This document shows positions 33,297-63,539 of a stretch of DNA of 64,000 nucleotides, piece by piece. Every line of letters begins with the position of its first letter. Position 1 is the first letter of the stretch. A program made the position numbers and the translations under genes. A model generated the notes under the pieces. It saw nothing but the letters and a program-made list of their open reading frames with translations. It was not told the DNA's origin and searched no databases. The DNA is taken from positions 67,530 to 131,529 of the forward strand of contig JACPTF010000002.1 of NCBI GenBank assembly GCA_016192915.1, in the 5' to 3' direction. The DNA comes from Candidatus Woesearchaeota archaeon. GTDB taxonomy: Archaea > Nanobdellota > Nanobdellia > Woesearchaeales > UBA10216.

Positions 33297-33700
33297 AAAT
33301 GGAAAGGGAAAGAACAACACGGTGGGGAATAGCTCACATATTCAGCTCATACAACAACACAATCATACACATAACAGACGTAACAGGCACAGAAACACTG
33401 GGCAAGGCCACAGGCGGAATGGTCGTGAAAGCTGACAGGCTTGAAGGCTCGCCAACAGCAGCCATGGCGGCAGCCAAAAGGGCAGCCGAACAGGCAATGG
33501 AGAAGGGCATAACAGGGATACACGTAAAAATAAAGGCGCCAGGGGGTCACAACGGCCCAAACACGCCAGGGCCAGGGGCACAGGCAGCCGTAAGGGCGCT
33601 ATCAAGAATGGGGCTAAGGATAGGAACAATAGAAGATGTAACACCATTGCCTCACGACAGCTGCAGAAAGAAAGGCGGCAAACGCGGCAGAAGGGTATGA
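33293..33700 (+). CDS. rps11: Ribosomal protein S11
   Basis: 135 aa; strong S11 similarity. Confidence 0.9.
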
Positions 33701-33731
33701 CCCTTTTCGTGGAAAAGGTTCAATCCAAAAA
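33698..33731. repeat. Second conserved motif, copy a (tgacccttttcgtggaaaaggttcaatccaaaaa) between rps11 and rpoD
   Basis: Hairpin cctttt-N5-aaaagg followed by ttcaatccaaaaa; near-identical to the copy inside the tRNA-Leu intron. Confidence 0.7.
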
Positions 33732-33768
33732 CGACACTAGGTGAAACAACAACATCGGCAAGAAGCCG

Positions 33769-34590
33769 ATGAGTTTTAACCAGGAGGTTAAAATGACGGA
33801 GATTGAAGTCATAAAGGCGGACAAGAAAAACAACAGGCTCACACTGCTAATCAGGAAATCAAACGCACCATTCGTAAACGCAGTAAGAAGGGCAATAGTG
33901 GAAAGCGTGCCCACAATGGCAATAGAAGACGTTGAGATAAGAAAAAACAGCTCAGTGCTTTACGACGAGGTAATAGCGCACAGATTAGGGCTACTCCCGC
34001 TGACAACAGACTTAGAATCATACAACCTCCAGGCAAAATGCAAATGCAACGGCGAGGGATGCGCAAACTGCCAGGTCAAGCTCACGCTTGAGTCAGAAGG
34101 GCCGGGAATAATAACGGCCTCAGAGATAAAATCAAAAGATCCCAAAATAAAACCGGTATTCCCCGAAACACCAATAGTAAAGCTCCTCAAAGGGCAAAAG
34201 GTAGAAGTTGAAGCAACAGCAGTGCTCGGCACAGGAAAAGTCCACGCAAAATGGAGCCCGGCACACGTCTGGTATAAGCACAAGCCTATACTAAAAATTG
34301 GCAGCGTCAAAGAGCCCCAAAAAGTAGTGGATGCGTGCCCGCCCGGAGTCTTTGAAATCAAAAACGGGAAGCTGGTCGCGAATGAGGAAAAACTGCTCAC
34401 AACAGACCTTGCCGGGCTTGCCGAAGAAGCAAGCAATGGCGAAGTAAACATAGAAAAGTCGGATGACTTTGTAATGTTCATAGAAAGCTTCGGGCAGCTT
34501 GACTGCAAGGAAATACTGGAGCAGGCCACAAAATCGCTTGACGAAGACCTGGAAGAGTTCGAAAAACTCCTCAAAGAAACCAAAGAATAA
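33769..34590 (+). CDS. rpoD: DNA-directed RNA polymerase subunit D
   Basis: 273 aa; RpoD/Rpb3 fold with Cys cluster CKCNGEGCANCQ; cluster order. Confidence 0.9.
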   Translation: MSFNQEVKMTEIEVIKADKKNNRLTLLIRKSNAPFVNAVRRAIVESVPTMAIEDVEIRKNSSVLYDEVIAHRLGLLPLTTDLESYNLQAKCKCNGEGCANCQVKLTLESEGPGIITASEIKSKDPKIKPVFPETPIVKLLKGQKVEVEATAVLGTGKVHAKWSPAHVWYKHKPILKIGSVKEPQKVVDACPPGVFEIKNGKLVANEEKLLTTDLAGLAEEASNGEVNIEKSDDFVMFIESFGQLDCKEILEQATKSLDEDLEEFEKLLKETKE

Positions 34591-34644
34591 GCATTTGCAC
34601 TCACTCCTCACAGCGAGGGTTGGGGTTGATAAGGGGGCGTAGAG

Positions 34645-34694
34645 CACAATTCCGCCAAGGCGGAATGTGCAATCGGGTTTTCCCCGATTTGCAC
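34645..34694. repeat. Modular palindromic repeat element, copy 3, between rpoD and tRNA-Leu
   Basis: Perfect hairpin cacaattccgcc-aag-gcggaatgtg, then caatcggg-ttttc-cccgatttg; same two units as the in-frame copy inside gatA. Confidence 0.8.
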
Positions 34695-34701
34695 CCTTAT
34701 A

Positions 34702-34841
34702 GCGGGGGTGGCAGAGCCTGGTCAAATGCGCTACCTTGAGGTGACCCTTTTTGGAACAAAAAGGTTCAATCCAAAAAAGTTGAAGGGTTGCGAACGGGTA
34801 GTCCCTTAGTGGGTGCGCGTGTTCGAATCACGTCCCCCGCA
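34702..34841 (+). tRNA. tRNA-Leu(GAG) with 54-nt intron at the canonical 37/38 position
   Basis: Manual fold: acceptor GCGGGGG/CCCCCGC (7 bp), D-arm GCAG...AUGC, anticodon stem CUACC/GGUAG with loop UUGAGG (anticodon GAG), long variable arm UCCCUUAGUGGGUGC, T-arm GCGUG-UUCGAAU-CACGU, discriminator A; CCA not encoded; intron 34742-34795. Confidence 0.8.
34742..34778 (+). repeat. Second conserved motif, copy b, inside the tRNA-Leu intron
   Basis: tgaccctttttggaacaaaaaggttcaatccaaaaaa; same hairpin stem (cctttt/aaaagg) and ttcaatccaaaaa tail as copies a and c. Confidence 0.7.
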
Positions 34842-34863
34842 CTCATAATAAAAGTGAGAAACG

Positions 34864-35214
34864 ATGGTAAAACCTGATTCACAAAGGCACACGGCAATAA
34901 TTGCCATAAAAACTACCGAAGGGGAAGACCTCGCGGCTGTTGTAAAGGCGGAAGCGCTGAAACTGAGAAGGCATGCAGGTTTAAGGCACAAGCCTCTCTG
35001 GCACAGCGGAAACTACATTGTGCTTAGAGCAAGCAGAAATTATGCGCTTGAAATTGTCGCGGCACAAACGCAAGAAGCTGGAGTTGTGAGGCTGACAATC
35101 AACAGCACAGGAACTGGTGCAATGCCGAAGCATGTTACAGACACCTTGCGGAAACAAGGCTACACGCCATTAGCCAAACAACATGTGCAGTTAGATGCAC
35201 TGTACAGACTATGA
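34864..35214 (+). CDS. Hypothetical small protein (weak resemblance to RNase P Pop5-like fold)
   Basis: 116 aa; host-like GC; pattern TAIIAIK..., LWHSGNYIVLRASRNYALEIVAA, VRLTINSTGTG loosely parallels Pop5 blocks; not verifiable here. Confidence 0.35.
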   Translation: MVKPDSQRHTAIIAIKTTEGEDLAAVVKAEALKLRRHAGLRHKPLWHSGNYIVLRASRNYALEIVAAQTQEAGVVRLTINSTGTGAMPKHVTDTLRKQGYTPLAKQHVQLDALYRL

Positions 35215-35218
35215 TAAG

Positions 35219-35578
35219 ATGAGAACCGGACCAACAAACATAAACCTGAAGAGCCTGATAGGCGAGCTCAGGAAGAAGGCCTATGCAGAGAACTCACCGC
35301 TACTTGCAAGAATAGCAGAGGACCTTGAGAAGTCAACAAGGCAGAGAAGGGCTGTTAACCTTTCCAAGATAAGCAGGTATGCCAAGAAGGGAGAGCTGGT
35401 TGTAGTCCCTGGAAAAGTGCTGGCGGCAGGAGAGCTGAACCAGAGCTTAACAATAGCCGCCTGGAAGTTTTCTGAACAGGCCCTCGATAAGATATCAAAG
35501 GCAAACGCCAAGGCAATAACAATCAATGATCTTATGAAGAACAGGGTAAAAAACACGGCAGTGAGGATAATAGGCTGA
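35219..35578 (+). CDS. rpl18e: Ribosomal protein L18e
   Basis: Start MRTGPTNINL; the ORF-track start at 35195 is an upstream extension; rpoD-L18e-L13-S9-rpoN order. Confidence 0.8.
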   Translation: MRTGPTNINLKSLIGELRKKAYAENSPLLARIAEDLEKSTRQRRAVNLSKISRYAKKGELVVVPGKVLAAGELNQSLTIAAWKFSEQALDKISKANAKAITINDLMKNRVKNTAVRIIG

Positions 35579-35596
35579 AAGATAAAGTGATAAAAA

Positions 35597-36016
35597 ATGG
35601 CCATAATTGACGCAACAAACATGATCCTTGGAAGGCTCGCCACACAGGCAGCCAAGCAGGCACTCAAAGGGGAGGAAGTTACGGTCGTGAACTGCGAAAA
35701 GGCCGTCGTGACGGGAAACAAGGAAAACATATATGAAAACTACATGAAAAAGTTTGATGTAGGGCAGGTAAACCAGGGGCCGTACTTCCCGAAAAGGCCA
35801 GACATGCTCGTAAGAAGAACAATAAGGGGAATGCTGCCTAGAAAAAAGCCAAGGGGAAGGTCTGCATTCGAAAGGGTAAAATGCTACGTAGGCATGCCAC
35901 AGGGTATAAAGGCGGAAGACGCCAAAATAGTGCCTGGGGCAAGCATAGAAAAGGCAAAAAAAGTGCCATTCATGACTGTTAGCCAGTTATGCAAGCACAT
36001 AGGCTACAAAGGGTAA
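35597..36016 (+). CDS. rpl13: Ribosomal protein L13
   Basis: 139 aa; L13 family. Confidence 0.9.
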   Translation: MAIIDATNMILGRLATQAAKQALKGEEVTVVNCEKAVVTGNKENIYENYMKKFDVGQVNQGPYFPKRPDMLVRRTIRGMLPRKKPRGRSAFERVKCYVGMPQGIKAEDAKIVPGASIEKAKKVPFMTVSQLCKHIGYKG

Positions 36017-36021
36017 CAAAA

Positions 36022-36432
36022 ATGACAGCAAGCAAGGTTATAGTTGTCTCAGGAAAAAGGAAAAGCGCCATAGCAAGGGCAATAGTAAGGCCTGGCAGCG
36101 GAAAGGTCACTGTAAACGGCAAGATGCTCGACTATTATGAGCCAGCTATTGCAAGAATGAAGCTTCAGGAGCCAATCCTGCTTGCAGGAGATGGCGCTGC
36201 AAAGGTTGACGTAGAAATTAACGTAAGAGGAGGGGGCGTGATGGGCCAGGCAGAGGCAGCAAGGCTAGCCATGGCAAAAGGCGTGGTGGCCTTCCTTAGG
36301 GACAAAAAGCTTGAGAAGGCATTCCTCGAGTATGACAGGCACTTGCTTGTTGCCGACGTAAGAAGGAAAGAAGTCAGGAAGCCGAACAGGCACGGAAAAG
36401 CCAGGGCAGCGGTTCAGAAAAGTTATAGATAA
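36022..36432 (+). CDS. rps9: Ribosomal protein S9
   Basis: Start MTASKVIVVSGKRKSAIA...; ends ...QKSYR as in S9. Confidence 0.9.
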   Translation: MTASKVIVVSGKRKSAIARAIVRPGSGKVTVNGKMLDYYEPAIARMKLQEPILLAGDGAAKVDVEINVRGGGVMGQAEAARLAMAKGVVAFLRDKKLEKAFLEYDRHLLVADVRRKEVRKPNRHGKARAAVQKSYR

Positions 36433-37856
36433 TTTTCAATTTTTTGGAATTCTTCCGTATTTTTAATTTCTCACTGGACACTGGACATGTGCCCGGCGAG
36501 GGTATTTAAGCTAGTTCTGCTGCGTGTTTCAGAGATCAGAAAAATGGATAAAAAAGATACCAGAGTTGTGTTAAAACCTGAATTCCAGAGAGAATTGTTT
36601 ACAAAGCTATTGAAAACTTATGCAAGAATGAAACTTGCGAAACTTATAGGCATATCTTCAGCAATGCTATACCACTACAAGAATTTGAGAGTTAGGAACA
36701 TTTCTCTTGCTACACTTGAAAGAGGGGCTATGCTTCTCGAAATAGAAATGAACAAAATAGAGGGATATATACTCAACACATATTCATTTAAAGAGAGTGT
36801 TCAAGATATTATGAAAGAAGGAAGTGCTAAACGCCATCAGCTACTAAAAGATTTTAGGAACGAAATTCCTAAAATTTCGGAAATTGCCTCAAATGGGCAG
36901 TTAGATGTTGAGAAATGGTTCTTAGCCTATAAGAAGCTCATAGATTTTGGGGCAAGGCAGTTTACTAAAATAAGAGAAAAGGGTAATCGGCTGCTGCTTG
37001 AATATACAAATTTCGCCAATGGCAAGCAAAAGGCGTTCAAAACCGTTTTACCGCGAAAAATAGAGGTTGATAGAGATTTTCTCTACTTCTTTGGACTTTG
37101 GCTTGGTGACAAGGCCGGAGGGGGAAGGATTGGTGTAGTAAACAAAGAACCTAAAATTAATTTTGAAACTTCAAAATTATTGCAAAAGTATCGCCAAACC
37201 CCGTTTTTCGAATTATATGTGGATAGAAATGTAGAGATTCCAAAAACAATCAAGGTAGATAAAATAACAAAAAAAGGGCTGACGGGTTGGGCCATTAGTG
37301 TTTATTCTGTCAATAGTATCTTTAAACGCTTTTTTGAATATTTAGAAGCTAATTTGGATGAATTTCTAAATCTTATGCCAAATAAAGCTGTGGTATTTGC
37401 TGGACTGTTTGATGCAGAGGGCAATATACTTTTAGAAGATAAATGTTTTAGGTGGGCTTGTAAAGATAAAGTAAAGATAGAAATTTACAAAAAGCATCTT
37501 TTTGAGATGGGGCTTTATAGAAGGTTTGATGGTGGCAATTTGGTTGGTTACGACCTTAATAAGTTCAGAAGTTTAGTGTTTCCTCATTTAAGGCATCCTA
37601 AGAAAATAAATGCGTGTAATTTGCTCTTTTTTAAACAAGGAAATCTTGAAGACCGGTTTATGCGGATTTTAGAGTTCATTCAGGCCAGACCTGGTCAAAC
37701 AAACCGAGAGGTGGCAAAAGCTTTAAAAAGAGCCAAGCGTTCCTCCCAGTTAAAATTTTTGGAGTACTTGGACTTGATTAAGATGACCGATTATCCTAAA
37801 AGAATGTTTATCACTGAAAAAGGTTTGGCTTCTCTTAGCCAAGGGGGCAAGGACAT
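36433..37856 (+). mobile_element. Low-GC (about 36-38%) island carrying a free-standing LAGLIDADG homing-endonuclease-like gene, inserted between rps9 and rpoN
   Basis: Abrupt drop from about 50% GC exactly at the rps9 stop; the island ends at the rpoN start codon; interrupts an otherwise universally conserved archaeal gene order. Confidence 0.7.
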
Positions 37857-37860
37857 ATGA
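36544..37860 (+). CDS. Free-standing double-motif LAGLIDADG homing endonuclease-like protein with flanking HTH/winged-helix domains
   Basis: Two LAGLIDADG blocks (FFGLWLGDKAGGG and VFAGLFDAEGN) about 100 aa apart; N-terminal HTH-like region; AT-rich codon usage; start chosen at MDKKDTR (36544). Confidence 0.7.
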   Translation: MDKKDTRVVLKPEFQRELFTKLLKTYARMKLAKLIGISSAMLYHYKNLRVRNISLATLERGAMLLEIEMNKIEGYILNTYSFKESVQDIMKEGSAKRHQLLKDFRNEIPKISEIASNGQLDVEKWFLAYKKLIDFGARQFTKIREKGNRLLLEYTNFANGKQKAFKTVLPRKIEVDRDFLYFFGLWLGDKAGGGRIGVVNKEPKINFETSKLLQKYRQTPFFELYVDRNVEIPKTIKVDKITKKGLTGWAISVYSVNSIFKRFFEYLEANLDEFLNLMPNKAVVFAGLFDAEGNILLEDKCFRWACKDKVKIEIYKKHLFEMGLYRRFDGGNLVGYDLNKFRSLVFPHLRHPKKINACNLLFFKQGNLEDRFMRILEFIQARPGQTNREVAKALKRAKRSSQLKFLEYLDLIKMTDYPKRMFITEKGLASLSQGGKDI

Positions 37861-38055
37861 TCATACCAGTCCGTTGTTTTTAGCTGCGGAAAACCAGTCG
37901 CGCAGTTTTGGGAGCAGTTTAAGGAAAGGGTTGCCAAGGGAGAAAACGGCAAGAAGGTGCTGGACGAGCTTGGCATGGAAAGGTACTGCTGCAGGGCGCT
38001 GTTCCTGGGGCATGTTGACCTGACAGACATCGCTGCAGAGTTCAAGAAGGCGTAA
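37857..38055 (+). pseudogene. rpoN: RNA polymerase subunit N gene interrupted by a +1 frameshift in a T5 run (37877-37881)
   Basis: ATG-ATC-ATA-CCA-GTC-CGT-TGT-TTT then TAG (MIIPVRCF*). Removing one T gives ...CFSCGKPVAQFWEQFKERVAKGENGKKVLDELGMERYCCRALFLGHVDLTDIAAEFKKA*, a full RpoN. Confidence 0.7.
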
Positions 38056-38452
38056 ACGGGGGTTTGATTAAAAAGGCACAAGCTGGAACGCCATTTTTTG
38101 GGTGAACTTGTGGTTTTCGCAGACAGGCCAGCTTACCTGGCCTGCCACCCTGTTTCAGAAGAGTGGGTGACTTATTTCGAACCAAACGATAGCTACTGGG
38201 ATTCTAACTTCACAAAAAGGTGGGAACAGTTTTGAATAGAAACGGTCAATGAACTGGCTGGACTTGTAGCTTCCGCCCCAGAAGAAAGGGAAGCCATCGT
38301 GGCAACAGTCGAAAACACATTCGGGCTCTCATGGTATGGGCAGCCGCCACAAACCAACCCTGCGGCGGGAAAAGCAGCCGAAGTACTATACAATGCAATC
38401 AAAGTCGTAGCGCTAAGCAAAGTTTAAAAACACTCAGCAGTTCTATCGAGCC

Positions 38453-41164: not shown

Positions 41165-41166
41165 AA

Positions 41167-41958
41167 ATGAAAAAAGTAAAAAAGGCGCTTGTTGTATATT
41201 ATGCCAGAAACTACGGCACCCTCAACGTGGTAAAAAAGGCGCTGCAGAAAAACAAAATAGCCGCTTCCTACATTAAAAGGGAAAGTGAATCAGCAATAAA
41301 AAAAGCCGCCCTTAAAGCTGATTGTGCTGTTGTTGTTGGCGGCGATGGAACGCTGCTCAGGGCATCACACTTAATAGAAAGCACCCCTGTCCTTCACGTA
41401 AGCTCCAATTTGAGCATAAACGAAGCATTCTTTGCAAGGGCAACAACAAAAGACATAAGCAGGAAAATAAAACTCCTTACCAAAGGAAAATATAAGCTGC
41501 TGCCGCTGCTGAGGCTTGAAGCTGAAATTAACGGAAAAAAGCTCCCATTCAAGGCCCTTAACGAAGTCTATGCGGGCAGTAAGGAGCCGTATCACACCGC
41601 CCGATATAAACTAATAATCGGCAACAAGACAGAGGAGCAGAAAAGCTCCGGAATCCTGATTTCAACTCCTGCTGGGAGTTATGCGTGGGCAAGAAGCGCA
41701 GGGGGAAGAACCTTGTCGTTGACGGCAAAAAAGATGCAGTTTGTAGTAAGAGAGCCTTATGTTGGAAGGCTCACAAAACCGAAGATGACAAAGGGCGTTC
41801 TGAGCAGCAGCCAGAGCATAACGGTAATTTCAAACATCTGGGAAAGGCACAAAGGGATAGTTGTTGTTGATTCTTACAAAAAGAATTTTGGGTTTAACAA
41901 CGGGGACAAGCTTCTTGTAAAAGCCGCGAAGCAGCCTCTGAATCTGATGGGCTTTTAA
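41167..41958 (+). CDS. nadK: NAD kinase
   Basis: 263 aa; GGDGT motif (VVVGGDGTLL). Confidence 0.85.
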   Translation: MKKVKKALVVYYARNYGTLNVVKKALQKNKIAASYIKRESESAIKKAALKADCAVVVGGDGTLLRASHLIESTPVLHVSSNLSINEAFFARATTKDISRKIKLLTKGKYKLLPLLRLEAEINGKKLPFKALNEVYAGSKEPYHTARYKLIIGNKTEEQKSSGILISTPAGSYAWARSAGGRTLSLTAKKMQFVVREPYVGRLTKPKMTKGVLSSSQSITVISNIWERHKGIVVVDSYKKNFGFNNGDKLLVKAAKQPLNLMGF

Positions 41959-41969
41959 TATCTGTGGCA

Positions 41970-42993: not shown

Positions 42994-42995
42994 CC

Positions 42996-43891: not shown

Positions 43892-44170
43892 AGCGGGAGA
43901 CGCGCCTGAAAGTTGGTAAGGCTTGAACCTTTCGGTTTGCTCCGCCATCGCTCCTCTCCGCTACCCTCCAAGCGCAAACACTTACGATTCGTGCTGCTTC
44001 CTTCCGGACCTGACACTTTGACCATAAATGCTAACCCTGCAGGACAGAGACTCAACGCTTTAGCAAAGGCCTACAGGCCAATACCAGACCGCCCCTCAAG
44101 CTTCGGTCCACCCATGAAGCCCGTATGGTGCAACAGCGCAGGGCTGGCGCGCCAACCTAGTCTCCCGGCG
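43892..44170 (-). ncRNA. ffs: Signal recognition particle RNA (7S/SRP RNA)
   Basis: Minus strand carries GUCAGGUCCGGAAGGAAGCAGC (conserved helix-8 SRP54-binding motif) at 43994-44015. 5' GCCGGGAGAC pairs with 3' GUCUCCCGC (terminal helix 5). TATA-like aacctttaaa about 25 nt upstream; T-run downstream; no protein gene on this strand. Confidence 0.8.
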
Positions 44171-55390: not shown

Positions 55391-55393
55391 AAA

Positions 55394-55624: not shown

Positions 55625-55626
55625 AA

Positions 55627-57054
55627 ATGACCTATTCAACAGAAGAAAAAAAATCACTCATTAAGAAAGGCAAAATAACGGCATCGAAAAACATCAAAGG
55701 ATTTCTAAACGCCGTAAGGAAGAAAAATGGCAGCGTGAACGCCATATTGCACGTTAATGAAAATGCTGTTGCCGAGGCAGAGGCTGCTGACAGGAAGATA
55801 AAGGCCGGGAAAGCCGGAAGGCTGGCAGGGCTAGCAATAGTGGTGAAGTCAAACATTTCTGTAACAGGGTTGCCTGTTACTTGCGCTTCGAAAACGCTGG
55901 AAAATTATTACGGGACTTTTGACGCTGACGTTATCGCTAAGATAAAGGCCGAGGACGGCATAATAATCGGGATGGCAAACATGGACGAGTTCGCCTGCGG
56001 AAGCTCAGGAGAGACCTCGGCATTTGGGGCAACACACAACCCTGCGGCCCCGGGAAGAATACCGGGAGGGACAAGCTCTGGCTCAGCTGCGGCTGTCGCG
56101 GCAGGATTCTGCGACCTGGCCCTTGGCTCAGACACAGGCGGCTCAATCAGGAATCCAGCCTCGCATTGCGGCGTTGTAGGCATAAAGCCAAGCTACGGAA
56201 GGGTTTCAAGGTATGGACTGGTTGACATGACAATGAGCTTTGACCAGATAGGGCCTCTCAGCAACGATGCTTACGGGGCAGCACTGCTTATGGAGGTAAT
56301 CGCCGGGAAAAGCGAGAACGACGGCACAACACAATTCCGCGATGAGCGGAATGTGCAATCGGGCAATGCCCGATTTGCAACTGCAAATAAAGTTCCGGAT
56401 TACCTGAAGCTTCTGCAGAATGGCGTGAAGGGGATAAAAATAGGCATGAGCCCGGAATTTGAGGAGATGTGCAGTGACAAAAGGATATATGGGCTGATAG
56501 AAGACGCCGCGCATAAATTTGCTGCTGCAACGAAAAGCACGATAAAACAAATAAAGTTGCCTTATGTTGACATGGCAATACAGGCCTACTACCCGATAGT
56601 TTACGTCGAGTTCTTCTCGGGAACCAGGAAATTTGACGGGAGGAAGTACGGCAAGAAAATAGAAGACAGCTGCGGTGAAGAGGTGCTGAGAAGGATACTT
56701 GGCGGCAGGGAAATATCAAAAGCTGAGCACCACGGCACTTATTACAGAAAGGCGCTGATGGCAAAGAAGCGGATAGCTGAAGGCTTTGAAAGCGCATTCA
56801 AGGATGTTGACATCATAATATCGCCAACAACGCCCATGCTGCCGCACAGGATTGGAACGAAAATAAGTGACCCGATGGTAATGTATGCTTATGACGCTTA
56901 TACCATCCCGGTGAATTTGGCGGGGGTTTGCGCGGGGGTTGTGCCTGCAGGGAAAATAGATGGTATACCTGTTGGGCTGCAGACTATGACGCCTGCTTTC
57001 AGGGAGGAATTGCTGCTTCAGACACTTGCCGGAATAGAAAAACAATCTTTATAA
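55627..57054 (+). CDS. gatA: Asp-tRNA(Asn)/Glu-tRNA(Gln) amidotransferase subunit A, carrying an in-frame 57-nt repeat insertion
   Basis: Amidase signature GGSSGGSAAAVA; 475 aa. Segment TQFRDERNVQSGNARFATA (56329-56385) is encoded by a palindromic repeat copy. Confidence 0.9.
   Translation: MTYSTEEKKSLIKKGKITASKNIKGFLNAVRKKNGSVNAILHVNENAVAEAEAADRKIKAGKAGRLAGLAIVVKSNISVTGLPVTCASKTLENYYGTFDADVIAKIKAEDGIIIGMANMDEFACGSSGETSAFGATHNPAAPGRIPGGTSSGSAAAVAAGFCDLALGSDTGGSIRNPASHCGVVGIKPSYGRVSRYGLVDMTMSFDQIGPLSNDAYGAALLMEVIAGKSENDGTTQFRDERNVQSGNARFATANKVPDYLKLLQNGVKGIKIGMSPEFEEMCSDKRIYGLIEDAAHKFAAATKSTIKQIKLPYVDMAIQAYYPIVYVEFFSGTRKFDGRKYGKKIEDSCGEEVLRRILGGREISKAEHHGTYYRKALMAKKRIAEGFESAFKDVDIIISPTTPMLPHRIGTKISDPMVMYAYDAYTIPVNLAGVCAGVVPAGKIDGIPVGLQTMTPAFREELLLQTLAGIEKQSL
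56330..56380. repeat. Modular palindromic repeat element, copy 5, in frame inside gatA
   Basis: cacaattccgc-gatga-gcggaatgtg + caatcgggc-aat-gcccgatttg; near-identical to intergenic copy 3 (34645). Confidence 0.85.
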
Positions 57055-57078
57055 ACGCTTTCTTGCTCTCTGGAATGC

Positions 57079-58875
57079 ATGTTAAGAACCAATACCTGCG
57101 GGGAGCTGACTGCCAAAGACATAGGCAGGATTGTTACGCTGGCCGGCTGGTGCCATTCCAGAAGGGACCACGGCGGGGTAATCTTTATTGACTTGCGTGA
57201 CAGGTATGGATTAACGCAGGTAGTTCTTGACCCAAGCCACAGCAAAAAAGTCCACAAGCTGGGCGAGCACATAGGGAGGGAGTGGGTCATTTCTGCAAAA
57301 GGCAAGGTGAGGAACAGGCCTAAGGACATGGTCAATCCTAAAATGGCCACGGGTGAAATAGAGGTCCTTGTTGATGAGCTTCAGATAATAACGAAAGCCG
57401 CTGTTCCGCCAATTGAAGTGGATGACAGGGTGGAAGCCTCTGAAGATATCAGGATGAAGTACAAGTACCTTGACCTGAGAAGGCCAATGATGCAGCAACG
57501 GCTGATTTTCAGGCATAAAGCGGCTGAAGCAGTGAGGGAGTACTTCAGCAAAAACAGCTTTATTGAGATTGAAACGCCTCTCCTCGTCAGGTCAACCCCT
57601 GAGGGGGCAAGGGACTATGTCGTTCCAAGCCGGGTTAGTCCTGGAAAGTTCTATGCCCTGCCGCAAAGCCCGCAGCTGTATAAACAGATTCTGATGATAG
57701 CTGGGTTCGATAAGTATTTTCAGCTTGCAAAATGCCTCAGGGATGAGGACTTAAGAGCAGACAGGCAGCCTGAGCACACCCAGATTGACTTTGAGATAAG
57801 CTTCGTTGACGAGAAAGACGTAATGCTGTTCGTTGAGGGGCTCTACAAGCACCTGTTCAAGGAAATGCTGGAGATTGACTTAAAAACGCCGTTCCAAGTG
57901 CTGACGCACGCCGAAACAATGGCAAAATATGGCACTGACAAGCCAGACTTAAGGTTCGGCATGGAACTTACTGATGTAACAGAGATTGTGAGAAAATCAG
58001 ACTTCAAAACATTTGCATCTGAGGAGCAAGTCAAATGCGTGGTTGCTGAAAAAGACTTCAGCAGAAACGAGATAGACGAGCTAATAGGATGGGCAAAGGA
58101 AAATGGCGCAAAAGGGCTTGCGTGGATGAAAGCAACCGACAAAGGGTTGGAGTCATCAATCGTAAAGTTCTTCAGCACAGAAATACAGAAGCAGCTGCTT
58201 CTGAAAACAAAGGCAAAGAAGGGCTCGGTTCTGTTCTTCGTTGCAGACAGCAAGAAAAAGGTTGCGGAAGTCCTTGGAAAACTAAGGGTTGAGCTGGGGC
58301 AAAGGTTTGGGCTGATACCCAAATCGGCCGCTACCGATTGGGCCCAGTCGCAGCAGCGACTTGGGAATGACAAGGAATTCAAGTTCTGCTGGGTAGTTGC
58401 TTTTCCTTTGTTTGAATGGAATGCTGACGTGAATAGGTGGGAGGCAGCGCACCACATGTTCACATCGCCAAAGCCTGAGCACGCAGATTTGCTTGAGAAA
58501 GACCCGGGTAAGGTTCTCGGAAACCTTTACGACCTCGTGCTCAACGGAACAGAGTTGGGTTCTGGCTCAATACGCATTAACAGCCCAGATCTGCAGGAAA
58601 GGGTGATGAAGGTTGTTGGCTTAAGCCATGAAGCTGCCCAGGCAAAGTTTGGGTTTCTTCTTGAGGCATACAAGTTTGGAGCTCCTGTTCATGGTGGGAT
58701 GGGGATAGGATTTGACAGGACAGTAGCGCTCATGCAGGGGCTGCACGACATAAGGGAGGTTATTGCTTTTCCGAAAAACAAAAAGGCTGAGAGTCCGATG
58801 GACGGCTCGCCATCAGAAGTTGAAGAGAGGCAGCTTAAGGAGCTGCACATCAAGAGTGATGTGGTTGGAAAATGA
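57079..58875 (+). CDS. aspS: Aspartate--tRNA ligase, bacterial type (with GAD insertion domain), carrying an in-frame repeat insertion
   Basis: 598 aa; class II motifs; bacterial-type length. Adjacent gatCA suggests the non-discriminating enzyme. Segment KSAATDWAQSQQRLGN is encoded by a repeat copy. Confidence 0.9.
   Translation: MLRTNTCGELTAKDIGRIVTLAGWCHSRRDHGGVIFIDLRDRYGLTQVVLDPSHSKKVHKLGEHIGREWVISAKGKVRNRPKDMVNPKMATGEIEVLVDELQIITKAAVPPIEVDDRVEASEDIRMKYKYLDLRRPMMQQRLIFRHKAAEAVREYFSKNSFIEIETPLLVRSTPEGARDYVVPSRVSPGKFYALPQSPQLYKQILMIAGFDKYFQLAKCLRDEDLRADRQPEHTQIDFEISFVDEKDVMLFVEGLYKHLFKEMLEIDLKTPFQVLTHAETMAKYGTDKPDLRFGMELTDVTEIVRKSDFKTFASEEQVKCVVAEKDFSRNEIDELIGWAKENGAKGLAWMKATDKGLESSIVKFFSTEIQKQLLLKTKAKKGSVLFFVADSKKKVAEVLGKLRVELGQRFGLIPKSAATDWAQSQQRLGNDKEFKFCWVVAFPLFEWNADVNRWEAAHHMFTSPKPEHADLLEKDPGKVLGNLYDLVLNGTELGSGSIRINSPDLQERVMKVVGLSHEAAQAKFGFLLEAYKFGAPVHGGMGIGFDRTVALMQGLHDIREVIAFPKNKKAESPMDGSPSEVEERQLKELHIKSDVVGK
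58321..58365. repeat. Modular palindromic repeat element, copy 6, in frame inside aspS
   Basis: ccgattgggcccagtcgc-agcag-cgacttggg; same units as intergenic copies 1, 2 and 7. Confidence 0.85.
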
Positions 58876-59093
58876 ACCGGCTTCTGCGTTTATTTCTCTA
58901 CCTTTGTGTTAGTGTGTTGATTTTTGTTTTGATATTAATACCTGTCGGCTTTTTAGTGCAAACAGTTTCCGGCACCTGTGAATTTTCGGAAGGCACATGC
59001 GGTTCACTTCGATTATCGATCGATCTGTTAATTTTAATCGCTGTTGTGGCTGCTTCACAACTAATAACCTACAAAATTTTTACAAAATTTTGA
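58872..59093 (+). CDS. Small membrane protein (hypothetical)
   Basis: 73 aa; two hydrophobic segments; 4-nt overlap with the aspS stop. Confidence 0.4.
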   Translation: MNRLLRLFLYLCVSVLIFVLILIPVGFLVQTVSGTCEFSEGTCGSLRLSIDLLILIAVVAASQLITYKIFTKF

Positions 59094-59102
59094 GGCTGCC
59101 GA

Positions 59103-59645
59103 ATGTTTGTTCTGGTAACCAGCAACGAAAGGAAGCTTGAGGAATTCAGAGAGCTGCTGAAAGGGCTAAACTTTGAAGTTCTGAAAACAGAAAAGCCTGA
59201 GCTTAGGTCTGATGACATCTGCGAGGTTGCAAAAACAGCTGCTAAAGCTATTTGCGGGAAAATACAGAAGCCGGTTGTTGTTGAGGACTCAGGACTGTTC
59301 ATTGATGCCTTAAAGGGCTTTCCTGGAACGTGCACTGCTTACGCCTTCAAAAGGATAGGCAACAGAGGCATTCTGGAGTTAATGAAAGGAGTAAAAAACA
59401 GGCGGTGCTGGTACAAATCTGCTGTCGGCTACTGCGAGCCGGGAAAAGAGCCGGCATGCTTCCTTGGCAGCGAGGAAGGAAGAATTTCTGAGAGGGAAAA
59501 AGGCAAGGGCGGCTGGGGGCAGGACCCGATATTCGTACCGAAAGGAAAAAGCAGGACTTACGGCGAACTGAGGAAGAAGGGTGATGTTAATTTGTTTAGG
59601 AAGGAAGCGATTGAGAAGTTGAAAAGTTTTTTGGAGACAAAATGA
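59103..59645 (+). CDS. Non-canonical purine NTP pyrophosphatase (Ham1/RdgB/ITPase family)
   Basis: VLVTSNERKLEEF...VVEDSGLFIDALKGFPG motifs. Confidence 0.8.
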   Translation: MFVLVTSNERKLEEFRELLKGLNFEVLKTEKPELRSDDICEVAKTAAKAICGKIQKPVVVEDSGLFIDALKGFPGTCTAYAFKRIGNRGILELMKGVKNRRCWYKSAVGYCEPGKEPACFLGSEEGRISEREKGKGGWGQDPIFVPKGKSRTYGELRKKGDVNLFRKEAIEKLKSFLETK

Positions 59646-60316
59646 GGACGGTAGATAGCCTTGTAAAGCTCGCAATGATGAATTTTCTAAAAGCTAGTGC
59701 TGTTTTCTATGGCGTAAAAATTTACGGTCTTGAAAATGTCGAAACTGAAAAAGGGAGTGTTTTTGGAGTCAAACACGCCAATAGTGTTGACCTTCCACTC
59801 ATGGTTCACGTGCTTCAAGGCAAAGCAACAATATTTGCATCCAGTCATATTTTCAAGAATCCGGCAGCAAACTATATGCTCACAGTGGCTGGCGCCGTAC
59901 CCCTCTATACAGCTCCAGATTATAAAGTGTTGAGATTAAACGGGGAATTGACCTCTCAGGCAGAATTAATAAAAAATGGATTGGAAGCACAAAAATGGCT
60001 GGCTTATGCACCAGAGGGAAACGTAGGCATGGGCTTTGTACGAGAGGATATTTACCCACAAATGCTAATAAAAGCAGCCAGCCACGGTCATCACACTTAC
60101 CTTGTTGGCATAAAGTTTAGGCATACTTACCACCCGTGGTTTTCTTTCGTGCGATGGCCATGGCAAAACGGAATTGAAGTTAGGATTGAGGAATACAATG
60201 CTGCTGGTAAACCACTTGGACTGGTTAAGGAAGAGGTAAGGGAATATCTAGCAAGGCTTAGCGGGCTTGATTGTTTAGAACAAAGAGTTAAACAACTAGC
60301 CCCCAGAAATAACTGA
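59642..60316 (+). CDS. PlsC/LPLAT-like acyltransferase (HX4D motif)
   Basis: VKHANSVDLPL contains H-x4-D; followed by the conserved ...YAPEGN.. block (EGxR-like). Confidence 0.5.
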   Translation: MRTVDSLVKLAMMNFLKASAVFYGVKIYGLENVETEKGSVFGVKHANSVDLPLMVHVLQGKATIFASSHIFKNPAANYMLTVAGAVPLYTAPDYKVLRLNGELTSQAELIKNGLEAQKWLAYAPEGNVGMGFVREDIYPQMLIKAASHGHHTYLVGIKFRHTYHPWFSFVRWPWQNGIEVRIEEYNAAGKPLGLVKEEVREYLARLSGLDCLEQRVKQLAPRNN

Positions 60317-60532
60317 CAGGATTTTAACCTCGTCTTTATCGCTCAGTGTGTCGTCTTCCGTAACAAGGCCGTTATTTTTCGCAACCAAGACTGCCGCAGG
60401 ATTGAGATTAAGCTTTTTCAGCAAAGCAGAGACCTTGCCGCTGAACTTAAGCTTCTTCCTTGCGTTTTCGCGCTCAATAAAGATTTCCATGTTTTTGAAA
60501 AAGACAGTCCTGCTTAATAAGTTTTTGAACAA
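60296..60532 (-). CDS. MoaD/ThiS/SAMP-like ubiquitin-fold protein ending in Gly-Gly
   Basis: 78 aa; C-terminus ...KILSVISGG; beta-grasp-like pattern. Confidence 0.6.
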   Translation of the reverse strand: MFKNLLSRTVFFKNMEIFIERENARKKLKFSGKVSALLKKLNLNPAAVLVAKNNGLVTEDDTLSDKDEVKILSVISGG

Positions 60533-60736
60533 TTTCCAAAAATTTCCGTAAAAACAGGCATTCCTGCATTTATAAATACTAATATGGACTGGTTGCTGGC
60601 GGTTTTAGGCAAAGCTTTGCGAATTTTAGCTCTGCAGGCTCTGGAAGGGCTTTTTTCCATGGGAAAGTATGGGGTTATGCTTACTTGAAAGGTCTTGTTT
60701 AAAAATAGCAGTGTTTATAAATAAGAACAGATAAGT

Positions 60737-60748
60737 GCTTATAAATAG
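60737..60748 (+). promoter_or_regulatory. TATA box (gcttataaatag) for tbp; consistent with a leaderless transcript
   Basis: Centre about 29 nt upstream of the ATG at 60771; a second TATA-like gtttataaata lies at 60713-60723. Confidence 0.4.
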
Positions 60749-60770
60749 AGTTTAGGGGGTGTTTAACAGA

Positions 60771-61328
60771 ATGGGCAAGAGAGAAATCACTGTAGTGAAC
60801 ATAGTAGTAAGCACTTCTTTGGGTCATGACATTCCTCTTGAGAAGATGAATGCCATGCTTTCAAACACAGAGTACAACCCTGAGCAGTTCCCGGGGCTGG
60901 TTATAAGGATAAAGGAGCCGAAAACATCTGCCCTTGTCTTCAGCAGCGGAAAGGTTGTCTGCACAGGCGCAAGGTCTATGGATAAGGTTGAGGAGTCAAT
61001 AAAGAAGATTATCAAGAGCCTTGAGAAGATTGGCATAAAGATAACGATAAAGCCAGAAATCAAGATTCAGAACATTGTCGCTTCAGGAACGGTGGGAATG
61101 GACCTTAACCTGAACACGCTAGCAATGAAGCTCAGCAACACAGAGTACGAGCCGGAGCAGTTCCCGGGGCTTGTTTACAAGCTCATAGACGGGCCTGTAA
61201 AGGCGACATTCCTCCTTTTCAGCAACGGAAAGGTTGTCTGCACAGGAACAAAGAGCGAAGAGGAAGTCAACAAATCACTTGACAAGCTTATTGACAACCT
61301 GAAGAAGGCTTCGGGGAAGAAAGGATAA
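60771..61328 (+). CDS. tbp: TATA-box binding protein
   Basis: Two direct TBP repeats (NTEYNPEQFPGLVIRIKEPK... and NTEYEPEQFPGLVYKLIDGP...); start moved to the ATG at 60771. Confidence 0.9.
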   Translation: MGKREITVVNIVVSTSLGHDIPLEKMNAMLSNTEYNPEQFPGLVIRIKEPKTSALVFSSGKVVCTGARSMDKVEESIKKIIKSLEKIGIKITIKPEIKIQNIVASGTVGMDLNLNTLAMKLSNTEYEPEQFPGLVYKLIDGPVKATFLLFSNGKVVCTGTKSEEEVNKSLDKLIDNLKKASGKKG

Positions 61329-61404
61329 ATTTTGCAGGGCTTAAGCACTCTTACTCTAAAACATGTTGCGGCCATGCTGAAGCAGGAATCGGCAGGCGTC
61401 AAAA

Positions 61405-63462
61405 ATGGGCGAAAAGGACATAACCGCGAAAGGCATCATGATGCTCGAAGCCACAGAGCAGATAGAGCGGTTCAAGGAATTCTTTGAAGAAATTGAAAAG
61501 AAAAACATGCTTGAAGCCGTATCATCGGGCAGGGCTTCGATAACAACTGATTTTGCAAAGCTTTCGGCGTTTGACCCAAAACTGGCTGTGGACTTGCTCG
61601 ACTATCCTGAAGAGGTAATCAAAGCCGCTGAACTGTCGATAAGGGAGATAGAGCTTCCAACAGATGTAAACAAGCTCAGGGTCAGGGTAAAAAACCTTCC
61701 GGAATCCCAGAAGCTGATGATAAGGGAGATAAGAAGCAACCACCTGGGAAGGCTCCTGGTTCTGGACGGGATTGTGAGAAGGAAATCAGATGTGAGGCCG
61801 CAAGTCATAAAAACCGAGTTTGAATGCCCTAACTGCGGGAGGATAATATCACTCCTGCAGACAGAAGCCACGTTCAAAGAGCCGAGGAGTTGCAGCTGCG
61901 GCAGAAAGGGAAACTTCAGGCTCATGGGTAAGGAGATGGTTGACGCTCAAAGCATGGTGCTGGAAGAAAACCCGGAGATGCTTGAAGGAGGAGACCAGCC
62001 AAAGCGAATAGGGGTTTTCCTTAAAGAGGACCTTGTAAGCCCGATAAGCGAGAAAAGGACTAACCCCGGAAACAGGGTAAGGGTAGTCGGAATACTGAAA
62101 GACGTGCCAGTGATAAAGCAGGGAAGCCGCTCAACAAACTACGAACTTTTAATCGATACGAATTACATAGAAACGATAGATGAGGATTTTTATGATATAA
62201 ACATTTCAAAAGAGGACGAAGAGCGCATAATGGCCCTGGCAAAAGACCCAAGAGTGTATGACAAGCTGGTTGCTGCCATTGCGCCGTCAATTTACGGCTA
62301 TGAAAAAGTGAAGGAGTCCCTCATGCTGCAGCTTATGGGTGGTGTGCAGAAAAAGCGTTCCGACGGGATTGTCTCAAGAGGGGATATCCACGTTTTGCTG
62401 GTGGGCGACCCTGGATCAGGAAAAAGCCAGCTCCTGAAAAGGGTAAGCGTCATAGCGCCGAAAGGAAGATACGTAAGCGGAGGGGGCGTAAGCGGGGCAG
62501 GCATAACGGCTGCAGTAGTCAAAGATGAAATCCTTGGGGGCTGGAGCCTTGAGGCGGGAGCACTGGTCCTTGCAAACAACGGCGTTTGCTCAATAGATGA
62601 GATGGACAAGATGAGCGAGGAGGACACAGGAGCCATGCACGAGGCGCTGGAACAGCAGAGTGTTAGTATTGCGAAGGCAAACATACAGGCAACGCTCATG
62701 GCCCGCACAACAGTCCTTGCCGCAGCAAACCCGAAATTCGGAAGGTTTGACCCGTACGGAAACATAGCAGAGCAGATAAACCTCCCGCCTGCGCTTATAA
62801 ACAGATTCGACTTGATATTCACAATAAAAGACATGCCACAGAAAGAAAATGATGAAAAGATAGCAGGCCACATACTGCAGCTGCACCAAACCCCGGACGT
62901 GCACGAGCCTGAGATTTCAACAGAATTCCTGAAAAAGTACATTTCGTATGCGAGGCAGAAAGTAAGGCCGTTTCTGGAGGATAATGCAATAGATGAAATA
63001 AAAGAATTCTACGTGCAGCTTAGAAACAGGGCAGTCAGCGACGAAAGGGCGGCAAGGGCAATACCAATATCAGCAAGGCAGCTTGAAGCCCTGGTCAGGA
63101 TGAGCGAGGCATCGGCAAAGGTAAGGCTGTCAGACAAGGTAACAAGGGAAGATGCTAAGAGGGCAATTGAGCTGTTGATGTACTGCCTGATGGAAGTAGG
63201 AAGGGAGAAAGAAACGGGCCAGATCGACATAGATAGGATAGCCACTGGCATACCGGCATCGCAAAGAGAGAAGATGTTCCTGATAAAGCAAATACTGGAC
63301 GACCTTGAAAAAGAACTAGGGAAAACTATCCCTGTAGAGGACGTTGCAAGGATTGCTGTTGAAAAAGGCCTAAGCAAGGCAGAAGTGGATGAAATAATAG
63401 AAAGGCTCAAGAGAATAGGCGATGTTTACGAGCCAAGATACGGCTTCCTGTCCAGAGTGTGA
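61405..63462 (+). CDS. mcm: Minichromosome maintenance (MCM) replicative helicase
   Basis: 685 aa; zinc finger CPNCG...CSCG; Walker A GDPGSGKSQ; Walker B IDEMDKM; arginine finger SARQ; no intein. Confidence 0.95.
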   Translation: MGEKDITAKGIMMLEATEQIERFKEFFEEIEKKNMLEAVSSGRASITTDFAKLSAFDPKLAVDLLDYPEEVIKAAELSIREIELPTDVNKLRVRVKNLPESQKLMIREIRSNHLGRLLVLDGIVRRKSDVRPQVIKTEFECPNCGRIISLLQTEATFKEPRSCSCGRKGNFRLMGKEMVDAQSMVLEENPEMLEGGDQPKRIGVFLKEDLVSPISEKRTNPGNRVRVVGILKDVPVIKQGSRSTNYELLIDTNYIETIDEDFYDINISKEDEERIMALAKDPRVYDKLVAAIAPSIYGYEKVKESLMLQLMGGVQKKRSDGIVSRGDIHVLLVGDPGSGKSQLLKRVSVIAPKGRYVSGGGVSGAGITAAVVKDEILGGWSLEAGALVLANNGVCSIDEMDKMSEEDTGAMHEALEQQSVSIAKANIQATLMARTTVLAAANPKFGRFDPYGNIAEQINLPPALINRFDLIFTIKDMPQKENDEKIAGHILQLHQTPDVHEPEISTEFLKKYISYARQKVRPFLEDNAIDEIKEFYVQLRNRAVSDERAARAIPISARQLEALVRMSEASAKVRLSDKVTREDAKRAIELLMYCLMEVGREKETGQIDIDRIATGIPASQREKMFLIKQILDDLEKELGKTIPVEDVARIAVEKGLSKAEVDEIIERLKRIGDVYEPRYGFLSRV

Positions 63463-63512
63463 CCCCCAATTCGCTTTGGCGAATGGGCCCAGTCGACGCA
63501 AGTCAACTTGGG
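63463..63512. repeat. Modular palindromic repeat element, copy 7, directly after the mcm stop
   Basis: ccaattcgc-tttg-gcgaatgg + gcccagtcgacgcaagtcaacttggg. Confidence 0.75.
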
Positions 63513-63539
63513 CTTTTCCTAAAAGGGTCAATCCAAAAA
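63513..63539. repeat. Second conserved motif, copy c (cttttcctaaaagggtcaatccaaaaa)
   Basis: Hairpin cctttt-ccta-aaaagg + gtcaatccaaaaa; immediately 3' of palindromic copy 7 and about 20 nt upstream of the next ATG. Confidence 0.65.

Follow-up and report, generated by a model that had tools for sequence, protein, structure and literature searches.

Results and Discussion

A 64-kb stretch of DNA from a Candidatus Woesearchaeota archaeon (contig JACPTF010000002.1; this whole stretch is called the window below) contains a short hairpin repeat with copies in gene junctions, in an operon leader and in the intron of a tRNA-Leu gene. The repeat unit is inserted DNA: it is present or absent at orthologous sites, is found in both orientations and as convergent doublets, and accepts further hairpins within its loop. 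It is carried by one clade of Woesearchaeota and by a small number of other DPANN archaea. We consider it probable, with some reserve, that the unit represents a family of mobile miniature palindromic interspersed elements, similar to bacterial repetitive extragenic palindromic (REP) sequences and the hairpins formed by REP doublets (REPINs) or to very small MITEs (miniature transposable elements with inverted repeats). Full-text searching of the literature found no description of this motif.

Identity and copy number of the repeat unit

The window is archaeal and has a G+C content of 47.9%. It contains an archaeal signal recognition particle (SRP) RNA, identified by Rfam, and ribosomal-protein, rpoD, secY and MCM genes, identified by Pfam, and its coding regions are 85–89% identical to those of the groundwater Woesearchaeota assembly JACPIH. 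The consensus of the unit is (CA)TGACC(C)TTTT – loop – AAAAGG(G/T)TCA – ATCCAAAAACG, which describes about 37–45 bp made up of an imperfect hairpin of 9–10 bp (TGACCCTTTT / AAAAGG(G/T)TCA), a variable loop and, on one side, a conserved tail. With up to three mismatches the 18-nt core AAAGGKTCAATCCAAAAA matches the window six times where 0.24 matches are expected, and none of 100 dinucleotide shuffles reached six, which rules out chance A/T composition as the cause of the similarity. The 12-nt tail alone, with two mismatches, is not enriched in the window (11 matches versus 12.5 expected), so that the unit has to be defined as hairpin plus tail.

A covariance model built from 31 copies (R1) was run over the window unfiltered and recovered three full units at 47–58 bits (33696–33734, 34740–34780 and, on the minus strand, 20554–20590), the 3' portions of two copies with expanded loops, and a sixth, variant unit at about 32053–32092; together with inspection, the total for the window is seven units. 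The original prediction, made from the letters of the window, had listed four copies. All four are real, but the list was incomplete, since it missed the inverted unit at 20554–20590 and the variant at 32053–32092, and the phenomenon is larger than was reported. The copy at 16024, which had been described as partial, and the one at 63513 are complete units; the 5' arm of each is found 60–110 nt upstream, where the preceding gene has its stop codon.

Several other candidates were rejected. A core match at 57326–57343, with three mismatches, lies inside an open reading frame (ORF) and was discarded as chance. A conserved small ORF over the unit (MTLL..KGSIQK) was ruled out because the loop lengths differ by non-multiples of three. 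A start codon at the GGGTCATG end is not a general feature, as only secY and a few doubtful short ORFs begin there. Likenesses of GGTTCAATCC to the tRNA T-arm or B box, to the 5' end of 16S rRNA or the anti-16S 3' end, and to some CRISPR repeat termini were dropped, as no pairing partner or array was found.

Evidence for insertion

The related loci L042 and L069 are syntenic with window positions 32–41 kb and have no unit between rps11 and rpoD. In L042 this junction reads GGGTA-TAA-GGTGAACCAA-ATG, with a 10-nt spacer, and in L069 it measures 27 nt. In the window, a full unit (c1, 33696–33734, plus strand; 58 bits with R1, E=1.9e-16; neighbours identified by Pfam) exactly replaces the stop codon and is followed by the old Shine-Dalgarno sequence. 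The parts of c1 are the 5' arm TGACCCTTTT (33698–33707), the loop CGTGG, the 3' arm AAAAGGTTCA (33713–33722) and the tail ATCCAAAAACG (33723–33733); they fold into a simple hairpin (z=-2.95), and the first three bases (33698–33700) are the TGA stop codon of rps11.

A second site of this kind is the leader of rps13, where L069 has the 10 nt AATGAGTGTT and the window has a variant unit, TGACCTTTTTTGCTGCGGCCAAAAAGCTCAACCAAAAAC (c6, 32053–32092, plus strand; 16 bits with R1, E=0.007). This variant, composed of TGACCTTTTTT-GCTGCGG-CCAAAAAGCTCA-ACCAAAAAC, sits in the loop of a conserved helix in the 5' leader of the rps13 operon, and the same type is found in tRNA introns of L042, L002 and L071. Upstream of the orthologue of the gene at window position 7047, JACPIH has an inverted unit and the window has a different segment that contains a hairpin. 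Copies also recur unchanged at unrelated places: c1 is identical over 37 of 37 positions to a JACPIH copy (L015) at a non-orthologous site, and the L016 and L034 copies are likewise identical at unrelated loci.

The unit occurs in both orientations. The full inverted unit of the window (c5, 20554–20590, minus strand; 47 bits with R1, E=8e-13) lies between rpl15 and secY, whose products L15 and SecY were identified by Pfam. Read on the plus strand, its tail encodes the end of rpl15, that is, the final codons together with the stop (TGA 20566–20568), and its hairpin ends 3 nt ahead of the secY ATG (20590). Apart from the tail of c5, all copies in the window are non-coding. The JACPIH orthologue of c5 (L053) has two additional hairpins in its loop.

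Other palindromic repeats have been inserted into the unit elsewhere as well, and composite units of this type recur across genomes and loci. The copy between mcm and the gene for a protein with an oligonucleotide/oligosaccharide-binding (OB) fold (c3, 63460–63542, plus strand; 23 bits with R1 for the 3' part, the rest from the fold) has a 5' arm TGACCCCC (63460–63467) whose TGA is the mcm stop, an inner mini-hairpin CTTTTCCTAAAAG, a 3' arm AAAAGGGTCA (63521–63530) and a tail ATCCAAAAAC (63531–63540). Its loop holds two nested palindromic repeats (63468–63512), and in the predicted fold GUGACCCC pairs with GGGUCA around two inner hairpins (z=-2.0); L031 and L035 have the orthologous architecture with 62-nt loops. 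Upstream of rps8 lies a degenerate unit with a loop of about 100 nt (c4, 15913–16045, plus strand; 12 bits with R1 for the 3' part only, the rest from the fold). The TGA in its 5' arm TGACCTTTT (15913–15921) is the rps14 stop, its 3' arm is AAAAAGGTCA (16024–16033) and its tail ATCAAAAAACG (16034–16044). The loop holds four nested palindromic repeats, and positions 15914–15922 are predicted to pair with 16025–16033, enclosing four hairpins (z=-3.8). The original prediction had noticed that two copies follow a palindromic repeat; c3 and c4 do so because these repeats nest in their loops. It had also placed three copies 20–45 nt ahead of a start codon. Measured from the last conserved base of the tail, this holds for the OB-fold gene (20 nt, ATG 63561) and for rps8 (42 nt, ATG 16087), but the distance to rpoD (ATG 33793) is about 59 nt.

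Finally, direct repeats of 15, 12, 10 and 8 nt flank four copies at the starts of protein genes and include the downstream start codon. Each has p<=0.013 from 300 shuffles, a per-copy value that is uncorrected for the approximately 40 copies tested. A fifth flanking repeat, of 5–6 nt, is found at the rpl39e/rpl31e junction, which was formerly 5 nt long. A tiny mobile element was among the explanations that the original prediction offered, and the insertion polymorphism, the identical copies at unrelated sites, the two orientations and the nested insertions fit it.

Other repeats and structures were seen beside these copies. At least five other families of palindromic repeats are present (GGGCCCAGTCG..CGACTTGGG, CAATCGGG..CCCGATTTG, GCACAATTCCGCC..GGCGGAATGTGC, TGTTGGCGGAGAGCCAACA and CTTCGTCTCTAAGACGAAG), at 15922–16019, 34591–34690 and 63468–63512 of the window and in L031, L035, L053, L071 and L144; they are often nested within the loop of the unit, with the same composite recurring in different genomes. 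Between the old Shine-Dalgarno sequence and the start of rpoD there is a second insertion (33743–33787, plus strand) which is missing in L042 and L069; it carries the hairpin CATCGGCAAGAAGCCGATG along with GGAGGT, a new Shine-Dalgarno sequence. The rps13-rps4-rps11 operon has a 5' leader (32019–32124, plus strand) that is conserved in L069, GCCCGAGTTCTGGGAAGAGCGATTG(C)AGGGCG..., begins about 30 nt past a canonical TATA box at 31981, and contains a 12-bp long-range helix (32025–32036 with 32096–32107). It matches no Rfam family and may be a candidate archaeal ribosomal-protein leader structure.

Distribution and conservation among relatives

One genome per species, 596 Gb in all, was scanned for the exact 17-mer core; several hundred chance matches are estimated for a 16–17-mer in a search of this size. 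Among the matches listed, repeated ones come from the Woesearchaeota assemblies JAHFTU, JACPIH, JACPBX, JACPBY, JACPCV, JACPIJ and UBA10216, and further ones from two archaeal bins without classification, an Aenigmarchaeota and an Iainarchaeum. The archaeal loci matched by the core carry the full hairpin-plus-tail form. Bacterial genomes gave single matches, in agreement with the number expected by chance, and the matches in JAUWQN ('Methanosarcinales'), one of which lies inside an ORF, are probably chance also. The recurrence of the unit in relatives, together with the enrichment of its core in the window, disposes of the doubt raised with the original prediction, that four A/T-rich tracts might resemble each other by accident and have no counterpart in related genomes.

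In the relatives, which the original prediction had proposed to search, further copies were found in gene junctions, at tRNA ends and in the introns of many tRNAs. At protein-gene junctions the upstream stop is often the TGA of a forward unit (the stop codon of a 471-aa gene in L005 also lies within the 5' arm), and the next start codon follows 4–21 nt past the tail or further; with inverted units the upstream stop lies 2–9 nt ahead of the tail. At tRNA 5' ends the hairpin end GGGTCA(T) falls within 0–3 nt of the tRNA +1 in about nine copies, and at tRNA 3' ends the TGACCC end is flush in two or three cases. Genes for tRNA-Leu, Glu, Thr and Gly have introns in which the unit starts directly after position 37, and it is found at non-canonical tRNA positions as well, for example in the tRNA-Pro of L102. 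Convergent doublets are present in L019 and in the 96-nt introns of L042 and L080; in JACPCV the 96-nt introns of tRNA-Leu(GAG) and tRNA-Glu(CUC) consist of a forward variant unit and an inverted canonical unit.

We aligned 58 full-length copies from 298 kb of the window and related DNA, most of these loci having been chosen because they carry the core. Four stem pairs show two-sided changes: one is C-G (46 copies) or T-A (10), two alternate between T-A and C-G, and the fourth pair from the base of the stem is C-G (15), A-T (7) or G-C (1), with a C.T or C.C mismatch in 33 of the 58. As the half-sites vary while complementarity is kept, and as loops of 60–100 nt are tolerated, the pattern argues for a hairpin under pairing constraint, as RNA or as single-stranded DNA, rather than for a site bound by a dimeric protein. 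The most conserved part of the unit is the tail, with four invariant positions and most others above 80%; (G)TCG frequently follows it but is not constant. The conserved tail may be a protein-binding site.

Two side observations concern tRNA genes of this clade. Several interruptions at non-canonical places are seen in tRNA-like genes (GCCGCGGATGCAGAAA...CCCGCGGCG) of L019 (minus strand, about 5966–6038) and L094 (1217–1307), which ARAGORN did not resolve; in L019 one interruption, after the D-arm, is a 71-nt convergent doublet of the unit. The motif C(C)CTTAT(T/A) directly precedes many tRNA genes (L026, L043, L046 and window 34691–34701), and a similar CTTATCC precedes the rps13 leader; a start-site context is one possible reading.

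The tRNA-Leu(GAG) intron

The tRNA-Leu(GAG) gene occupies 34702–34842 (plus strand) and has an intron of 54 nt (34742–34795). Its first 38 nt are a full unit (c2, 34742–34779, plus strand; 51 bits with R1), so that the motif does form most of the intron, as originally predicted, with the extent of the intron now corrected. ARAGORN in intron mode called the gene tRNA-Phe and the Rfam tRNA model missed it, and the assignment was settled by hand with the minimum-energy fold and in-silico splicing. Deletion of 34742–34795 in silico leaves an 87-nt sequence that ARAGORN identifies as tRNA-Leu(gag), with the intron at the canonical 37/38 position.

The minimum-energy fold pairs 34741–34750 with 34782–34791, and a predicted bulge-helix-bulge (BHB) motif, drawn by hand, has two 3-nt bulges, AC|G and GG|U, between flanking helices. 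One of these is the anticodon stem CUACC/GGUAG (5 bp). The other, the outer helix (h'), has 7 bp, GACCCUU/AAGGGUU, and is formed by the 5' arm of the unit together with GAAGGGTTG, a second arm of degenerate sequence within the intron (34782–34790, plus strand). The central helix consists of U-A, U.G, G-C and one A/G mismatch, making the motif slightly relaxed, and both this helix and the second bulge come from sequence outside the unit. The hairpin of the unit itself is a competing alternative fold. The second arm is probably what is left of another unit, in inverted orientation, that is intact in L042, where the same tRNA has a 96-nt intron ending ...CGTTTTTGGATTGAACCTTTTGCCGTGCAAAAGGGTCA|AAC.

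A comparison of tRNA-Leu introns among related taxa had been suggested with the original prediction. Metagenome contigs were scanned for the exact 22-nt stretch of the 5' exon from the D-loop to position 37, which gave 26 loci. The other parts of these genes differ slightly among contigs, and the 3' exon of the intronless versions matches closely. Half of the loci (13) are intronless, four have a 12-nt intron, one has a 26-nt hairpin intron, three have unrelated hairpin content (45–92 nt), and five have the unit; the introns of these five measure 39, 51 and 104 nt, and the longest holds nested repeats. With the covariance model, units were found only on the five contigs with a unit in the intron and on none of the other 21, eight of which are 7–15 kb long; the interior of the intron thus mirrors the hairpin family that is active in the lineage. 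Whether or not they hold the unit, most introns of at least 26 nt have at their end a related (G)CRAAY motif, usually GCAAAC or GCGAAC, and it follows that an older intron frame predates the unit.

The 12-nt mini-introns at position 37/38 are found in L121, L131, L132 and L136 and read GCATGGCCAAAA, CCATGGGCAAAA and CCATAGGCAAAA. They resemble the joined ends of the unit (CATG ... CCAAAA) and may be deletion footprints.

A model for a mobile unit

If the unit is a mobile element, its copying and insertion would take place on DNA, and a putative enzyme acting in trans might recognise it as a single-stranded hairpin. In compact genomes selection would then retain only harmless insertions, for which three kinds of site may be proposed. 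The first is exactly at a stop codon, where the unit would supply its own TGA, followed by the T-run and hairpin. The second is flush with the mature ends of a tRNA, where the unit would be trimmed away with the leader or trailer, and the third is within an existing BHB intron, from which the splicing endonuclease would remove it. For the tRNA-Leu(GAG) of the window the model implies that the unit has replaced the interior of an older canonical 37/38 intron. The GACCC of its 5' arm would pair with the leftover second arm to give the outer helix of a slightly relaxed BHB, and the 3' end of the older intron (GCGA + AC|G) would give the central helix and the second bulge. As these come from the older intron, the copy in the intron would be a passenger that is spliced out and not a signal shared with the intergenic copies.

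A bolder extension of this model, which we put forward as speculation and think rather unlikely, takes the unit for an 'intron-compatible' miniature transposon that would be chiefly responsible for making and reshaping the tRNA introns of this DPANN clade. The design of its hairpin would be such that, once inserted next to a helix (anticodon stem, acceptor stem or leader helix), it becomes a substrate that a splicing endonuclease of broad specificity or end-processing enzymes can remove, and the unit could invade structural RNA genes without killing them. Copies flush with tRNA ends, a TATA spacing of 21–23 nt at tRNA genes (see below) and the mini-introns CATG..CCAAAA as excision footprints would fit this extension, and under it the flanking repeats that contain start codons would reflect a targeting of transcription start regions.

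Several observations weigh against a mobile element. In tandem gene contexts the forward orientation is 2–3 times commoner than the inverted one. The flanking repeats range from 0 to 15 nt, and there are none at the rps11/rpoD insertion or at the tRNA copies, which is unlike ordinary transposition. In L071 and L096 the left-hand flanking repeat has the same sequence as the beginning of the gene downstream, and the two change together from one genome to the other. A tblastn search of 469 kb with two IS200-type/REP-associated tyrosine transposase (RAYT) queries gave no match at E<1, which is a weak test; no transposase or other mobilising enzyme was found in the DNA searched, nor was the full form of the unit found in the viral contigs searched. 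The conservation of the tail (11–14 nt) over several DPANN lineages goes beyond what a purely selfish element would show and suggests a conserved binding partner. A simple selfish element does not account for the variable flanking repeats, the co-variation in L071 and L096, the stem mismatch or the conservation of the tail.

The position of promoters at tRNA genes belongs with these points. The canonical TATA boxes of this organism (TTTAAATA/TTTATAAA) start 29–34 nt ahead of start codons. Where the unit lies upstream of a tRNA gene, a canonical TATA box starts 21–23 nt ahead of the T-run of the tail in at least five of about nine copies. This amounts to five of the 58 aligned copies, all of them associated with tRNAs, or seven if the distal variants in L049 and L085 are included. 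The start predicted from these boxes (TATA+30–32, as in the leaderless genes of the window) falls on the first base of the hairpin, and in tRNA genes without a unit the TATA box lies 32–35 nt from +1. Such fixed spacing suggests function or targeting and not random insertion followed by selection, that is, either exaptation of the unit as a leader hairpin or initiator region or a targeting of start regions.

Alternative explanations

The most serious alternative, to which we allow a modest chance and which may coexist with mobility, is that the unit is a 'punctuation' element of the host, kept for a function in transcripts or at the DNA between cistrons. In the forward orientation it would end the upstream message with its TGA, T-run and protective hairpin, and in the inverted orientation it would be a promoter-proximal or initiator region and provide a 5'-terminal leader hairpin for tRNA genes. 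The stops of rps11, rps14, mcm and the 471-aa gene of L005 that lie in the 5' arm agree with such a role, as do the start codons of real genes 4–21 nt past the tail, the TATA boxes that would put the start at the base of the hairpin, and the strong conservation of the tail. However, the unit is dispensable, since relatives have the 10-nt rps11/rpoD junction and an rps13 leader without it. The distance from tail to start codon varies from 4 to about 60 nt, with no fixed promoter geometry, loops of 60–100 nt are tolerated, and the unit is also an intron component, a place in which signals for termination or initiation would do harm or serve no purpose. Punctuation could also result from the secondary exaptation of a mobile element, and the two readings do not strictly exclude each other.

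It is improbable that the unit is an archaeal core promoter, in which the T-run and A-run would be a split TATA box, or AAAGG-TTCAATCC a B recognition element (BRE) with its TATA box, and the copy in the intron an internal promoter. Local canonical promoters, CCTTTAAAAAGC or AAAGGTTTAAATCG, do resemble CCCTTTT-loop-AAAAGGTTCAATCC, c4 has a true TTATAAAA in place of the loop side of its 3' arm, and several downstream genes have no Shine-Dalgarno sequence. Yet with TTCAATCC as TATA box the predicted start lies downstream of most start codons, and a hairpin read as TATA box would have a GC-rich centre and a loop of up to 100 nt. Units lie anywhere between 4 and about 60 nt from the ATG, with none of their parts in consistent alignment, and inverted copies aim into coding regions. 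Moreover, three copies (c1, c4 and that of L016) belong to conserved ribosomal operons which relatives transcribe without the unit. A consistent geometry was found for none of the variants tried (TTCAATCC as TATA box, the hairpin as split TATA box, a bidirectional promoter). The original prediction had already judged that a sequence common to an intron and spacers is hard to explain as a promoter, and this view stands, as the local TATA boxes are ordinary and the motif is not among them.

The original prediction had also considered a shared BHB-like processing site. On this reading the tRNA splicing endonuclease would cut every copy, and the unit would be excised from mRNAs as well as from tRNA precursors. 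We give this very little credence. In many tRNA introns the unit does start exactly at the 5' splice site (after position 37), others directly abut the 5' and 3' ends of tRNAs, and the copy in the rps13 leader is enclosed by a 12-bp helix of its flanks. DPANN splicing endonucleases are reported to accept relaxed motifs (PMC5829648). The intergenic copies c1, c3, c4 and c5 were folded with their flanks, as had been proposed, and gave only the stem of the unit itself with any nested hairpins; these plain or multibranched hairpins do not have the complementary flanks, the 3-nt bulges or the 4-bp central helix of a BHB. Only the copy in the intron is in a BHB context, where the motif contributes one strand of the outer helix and the central helix and second bulge are non-unit sequence. 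Excision of c1, c3 or c4 would, furthermore, delete the stop codon of the upstream gene. A shared BHB site is thus largely refuted by the predicted structures.

Archaeal introns can encode guide RNAs, the tRNA-Trp intron being an established example, and an antisense transcript would explain why the left repeat in L071 and L096 co-varies with the start of the downstream gene, but a small guide or regulatory RNA (such as an intron-encoded C/D-box-like guide or an antisense RNA), the guide element of the original prediction, is hardly credible here, as 34742–34795 has no C (RUGAUGA) or D (CUGA) box, no Rfam family matches the copies in the window at the gathering threshold, 34600–34900 gave only one chance-level match, no target complementarity was found, and the unit occurs in both orientations relative to transcription.

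Other features of the window

Two features of the window are unconnected with the unit. An 817-aa gene for an A/V-type ATPase subunit (2321–4774, plus strand) contains an intein with a LAGLIDADG homing endonuclease, the insert lying at about 3155–4233; it was recognised by the Pfam families Intein_splicing and LAGLIDADG_3 over residues of about 324–638. The JACPIH orthologue (L015) does not have this stretch of about 1.08 kb, so that the intein is present or absent between relatives. The archaeal SRP RNA lies at 43894–44167 (minus strand; Rfam RF01857, 126.7 bits).

Comparison with known systems

The origin and turnover of archaeal tRNA introns is an old open question, for which mobile elements, reverse splicing and protection against integration have been proposed. 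Here one 40-bp family is present in gene junctions, at tRNA ends and in introns. As close relatives have tRNA-Leu(GAG) genes that share the 5'-exon tag but are intronless, hold a 12-nt intron or are filled with other hairpin repeats, the remodelling of introns by small mobile DNA becomes directly testable. The family also adds a REP-like repeat system to the DPANN archaea, whose very compact genomes would not be expected to tolerate such elements; the price of tolerance is that genes take their stop codons from the unit and that it lies precisely where RNAs are processed.

REPs are short imperfect palindromes with a one-sided tag, which lie after stop codons, form inverted doublets and vary among strains; their families include GTAG- and CGTC-tagged ones, the CGTC type having no known dedicated transposase (PMC3733652). 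The unit resembles REPs, REPINs and bacterial interspersed mosaic elements (BIMEs) in being a short (20–40 bp) imperfect palindrome in transcribed extragenic spacers just past stop codons, with a one-sided conserved sequence, a conserved irregularity of the stem, frequent inverted doublets (convergent pairs in L042, L080 and L019) and differences between related strains. It is interspersed, with seven copies in 64 kb and 58 full-length copies in 298 kb. It differs in its archaeal (DPANN) host, in its position flush with tRNA ends and inside tRNA introns, and in often supplying the stop codon of the upstream gene. Its tag is an A-rich tail of 11–14 nt, ATCCAAAAACG, and not a tetranucleotide, GTAG being absent, and no RAYT gene was seen in the tblastn search of 469 kb. 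We call the unit REP-like and do not class it as a REP because the tetranucleotide tag is missing and no RAYT gene was seen with it in that DNA.

With MITEs and palindrome-associated transposable elements (PATEs), the hairpin-ended IS200/IS605 derivatives of archaea, the unit shares its small size, its non-coding and non-autonomous nature, the inverted repeat, polymorphic and nested insertions and, in some cases, duplications on its flanks. At about 40 bp it is far smaller than a typical MITE of 100–400 bp, and it has a single hairpin in place of two distinct ends, the arms of which are not terminal on the tail side. Its flanking repeats are variable or absent, and no parent insertion sequence was identified.

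Fujishima and co-workers reportedly described families of tRNA introns in Thermoproteales for which they proposed 'intron transposition', and are said to have noted similarity between introns and the leaders of split tRNA genes. In these systems, introns of different tRNAs in one genome share sequence, the same sequence lies beside pieces of tRNA genes, and close relatives differ, all of which is true of our unit. The unit, however, occurs in DPANN archaea and is also common in protein-gene junctions and present in an mRNA leader, and is thus not intron-specific; its doublets and nested repeats point to a DNA element rather than to reverse splicing.

In Caldiarchaeum subterraneum, the disruption of tRNA genes has been modelled through an integrating 1.8-kb element that encodes a recombinase (PMC3293823). 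Here as there, tRNA introns are seen to be gained and remodelled within short times when populations or relatives are compared, in connection with mobile DNA. The agent differs, being a 1.8-kb recombinase-encoding insertion in that case and a 40-bp non-coding hairpin repeat in this one, but by analogy the unit fits the mobile-element model of tRNA gene disruption that was developed for Caldiarchaeum.

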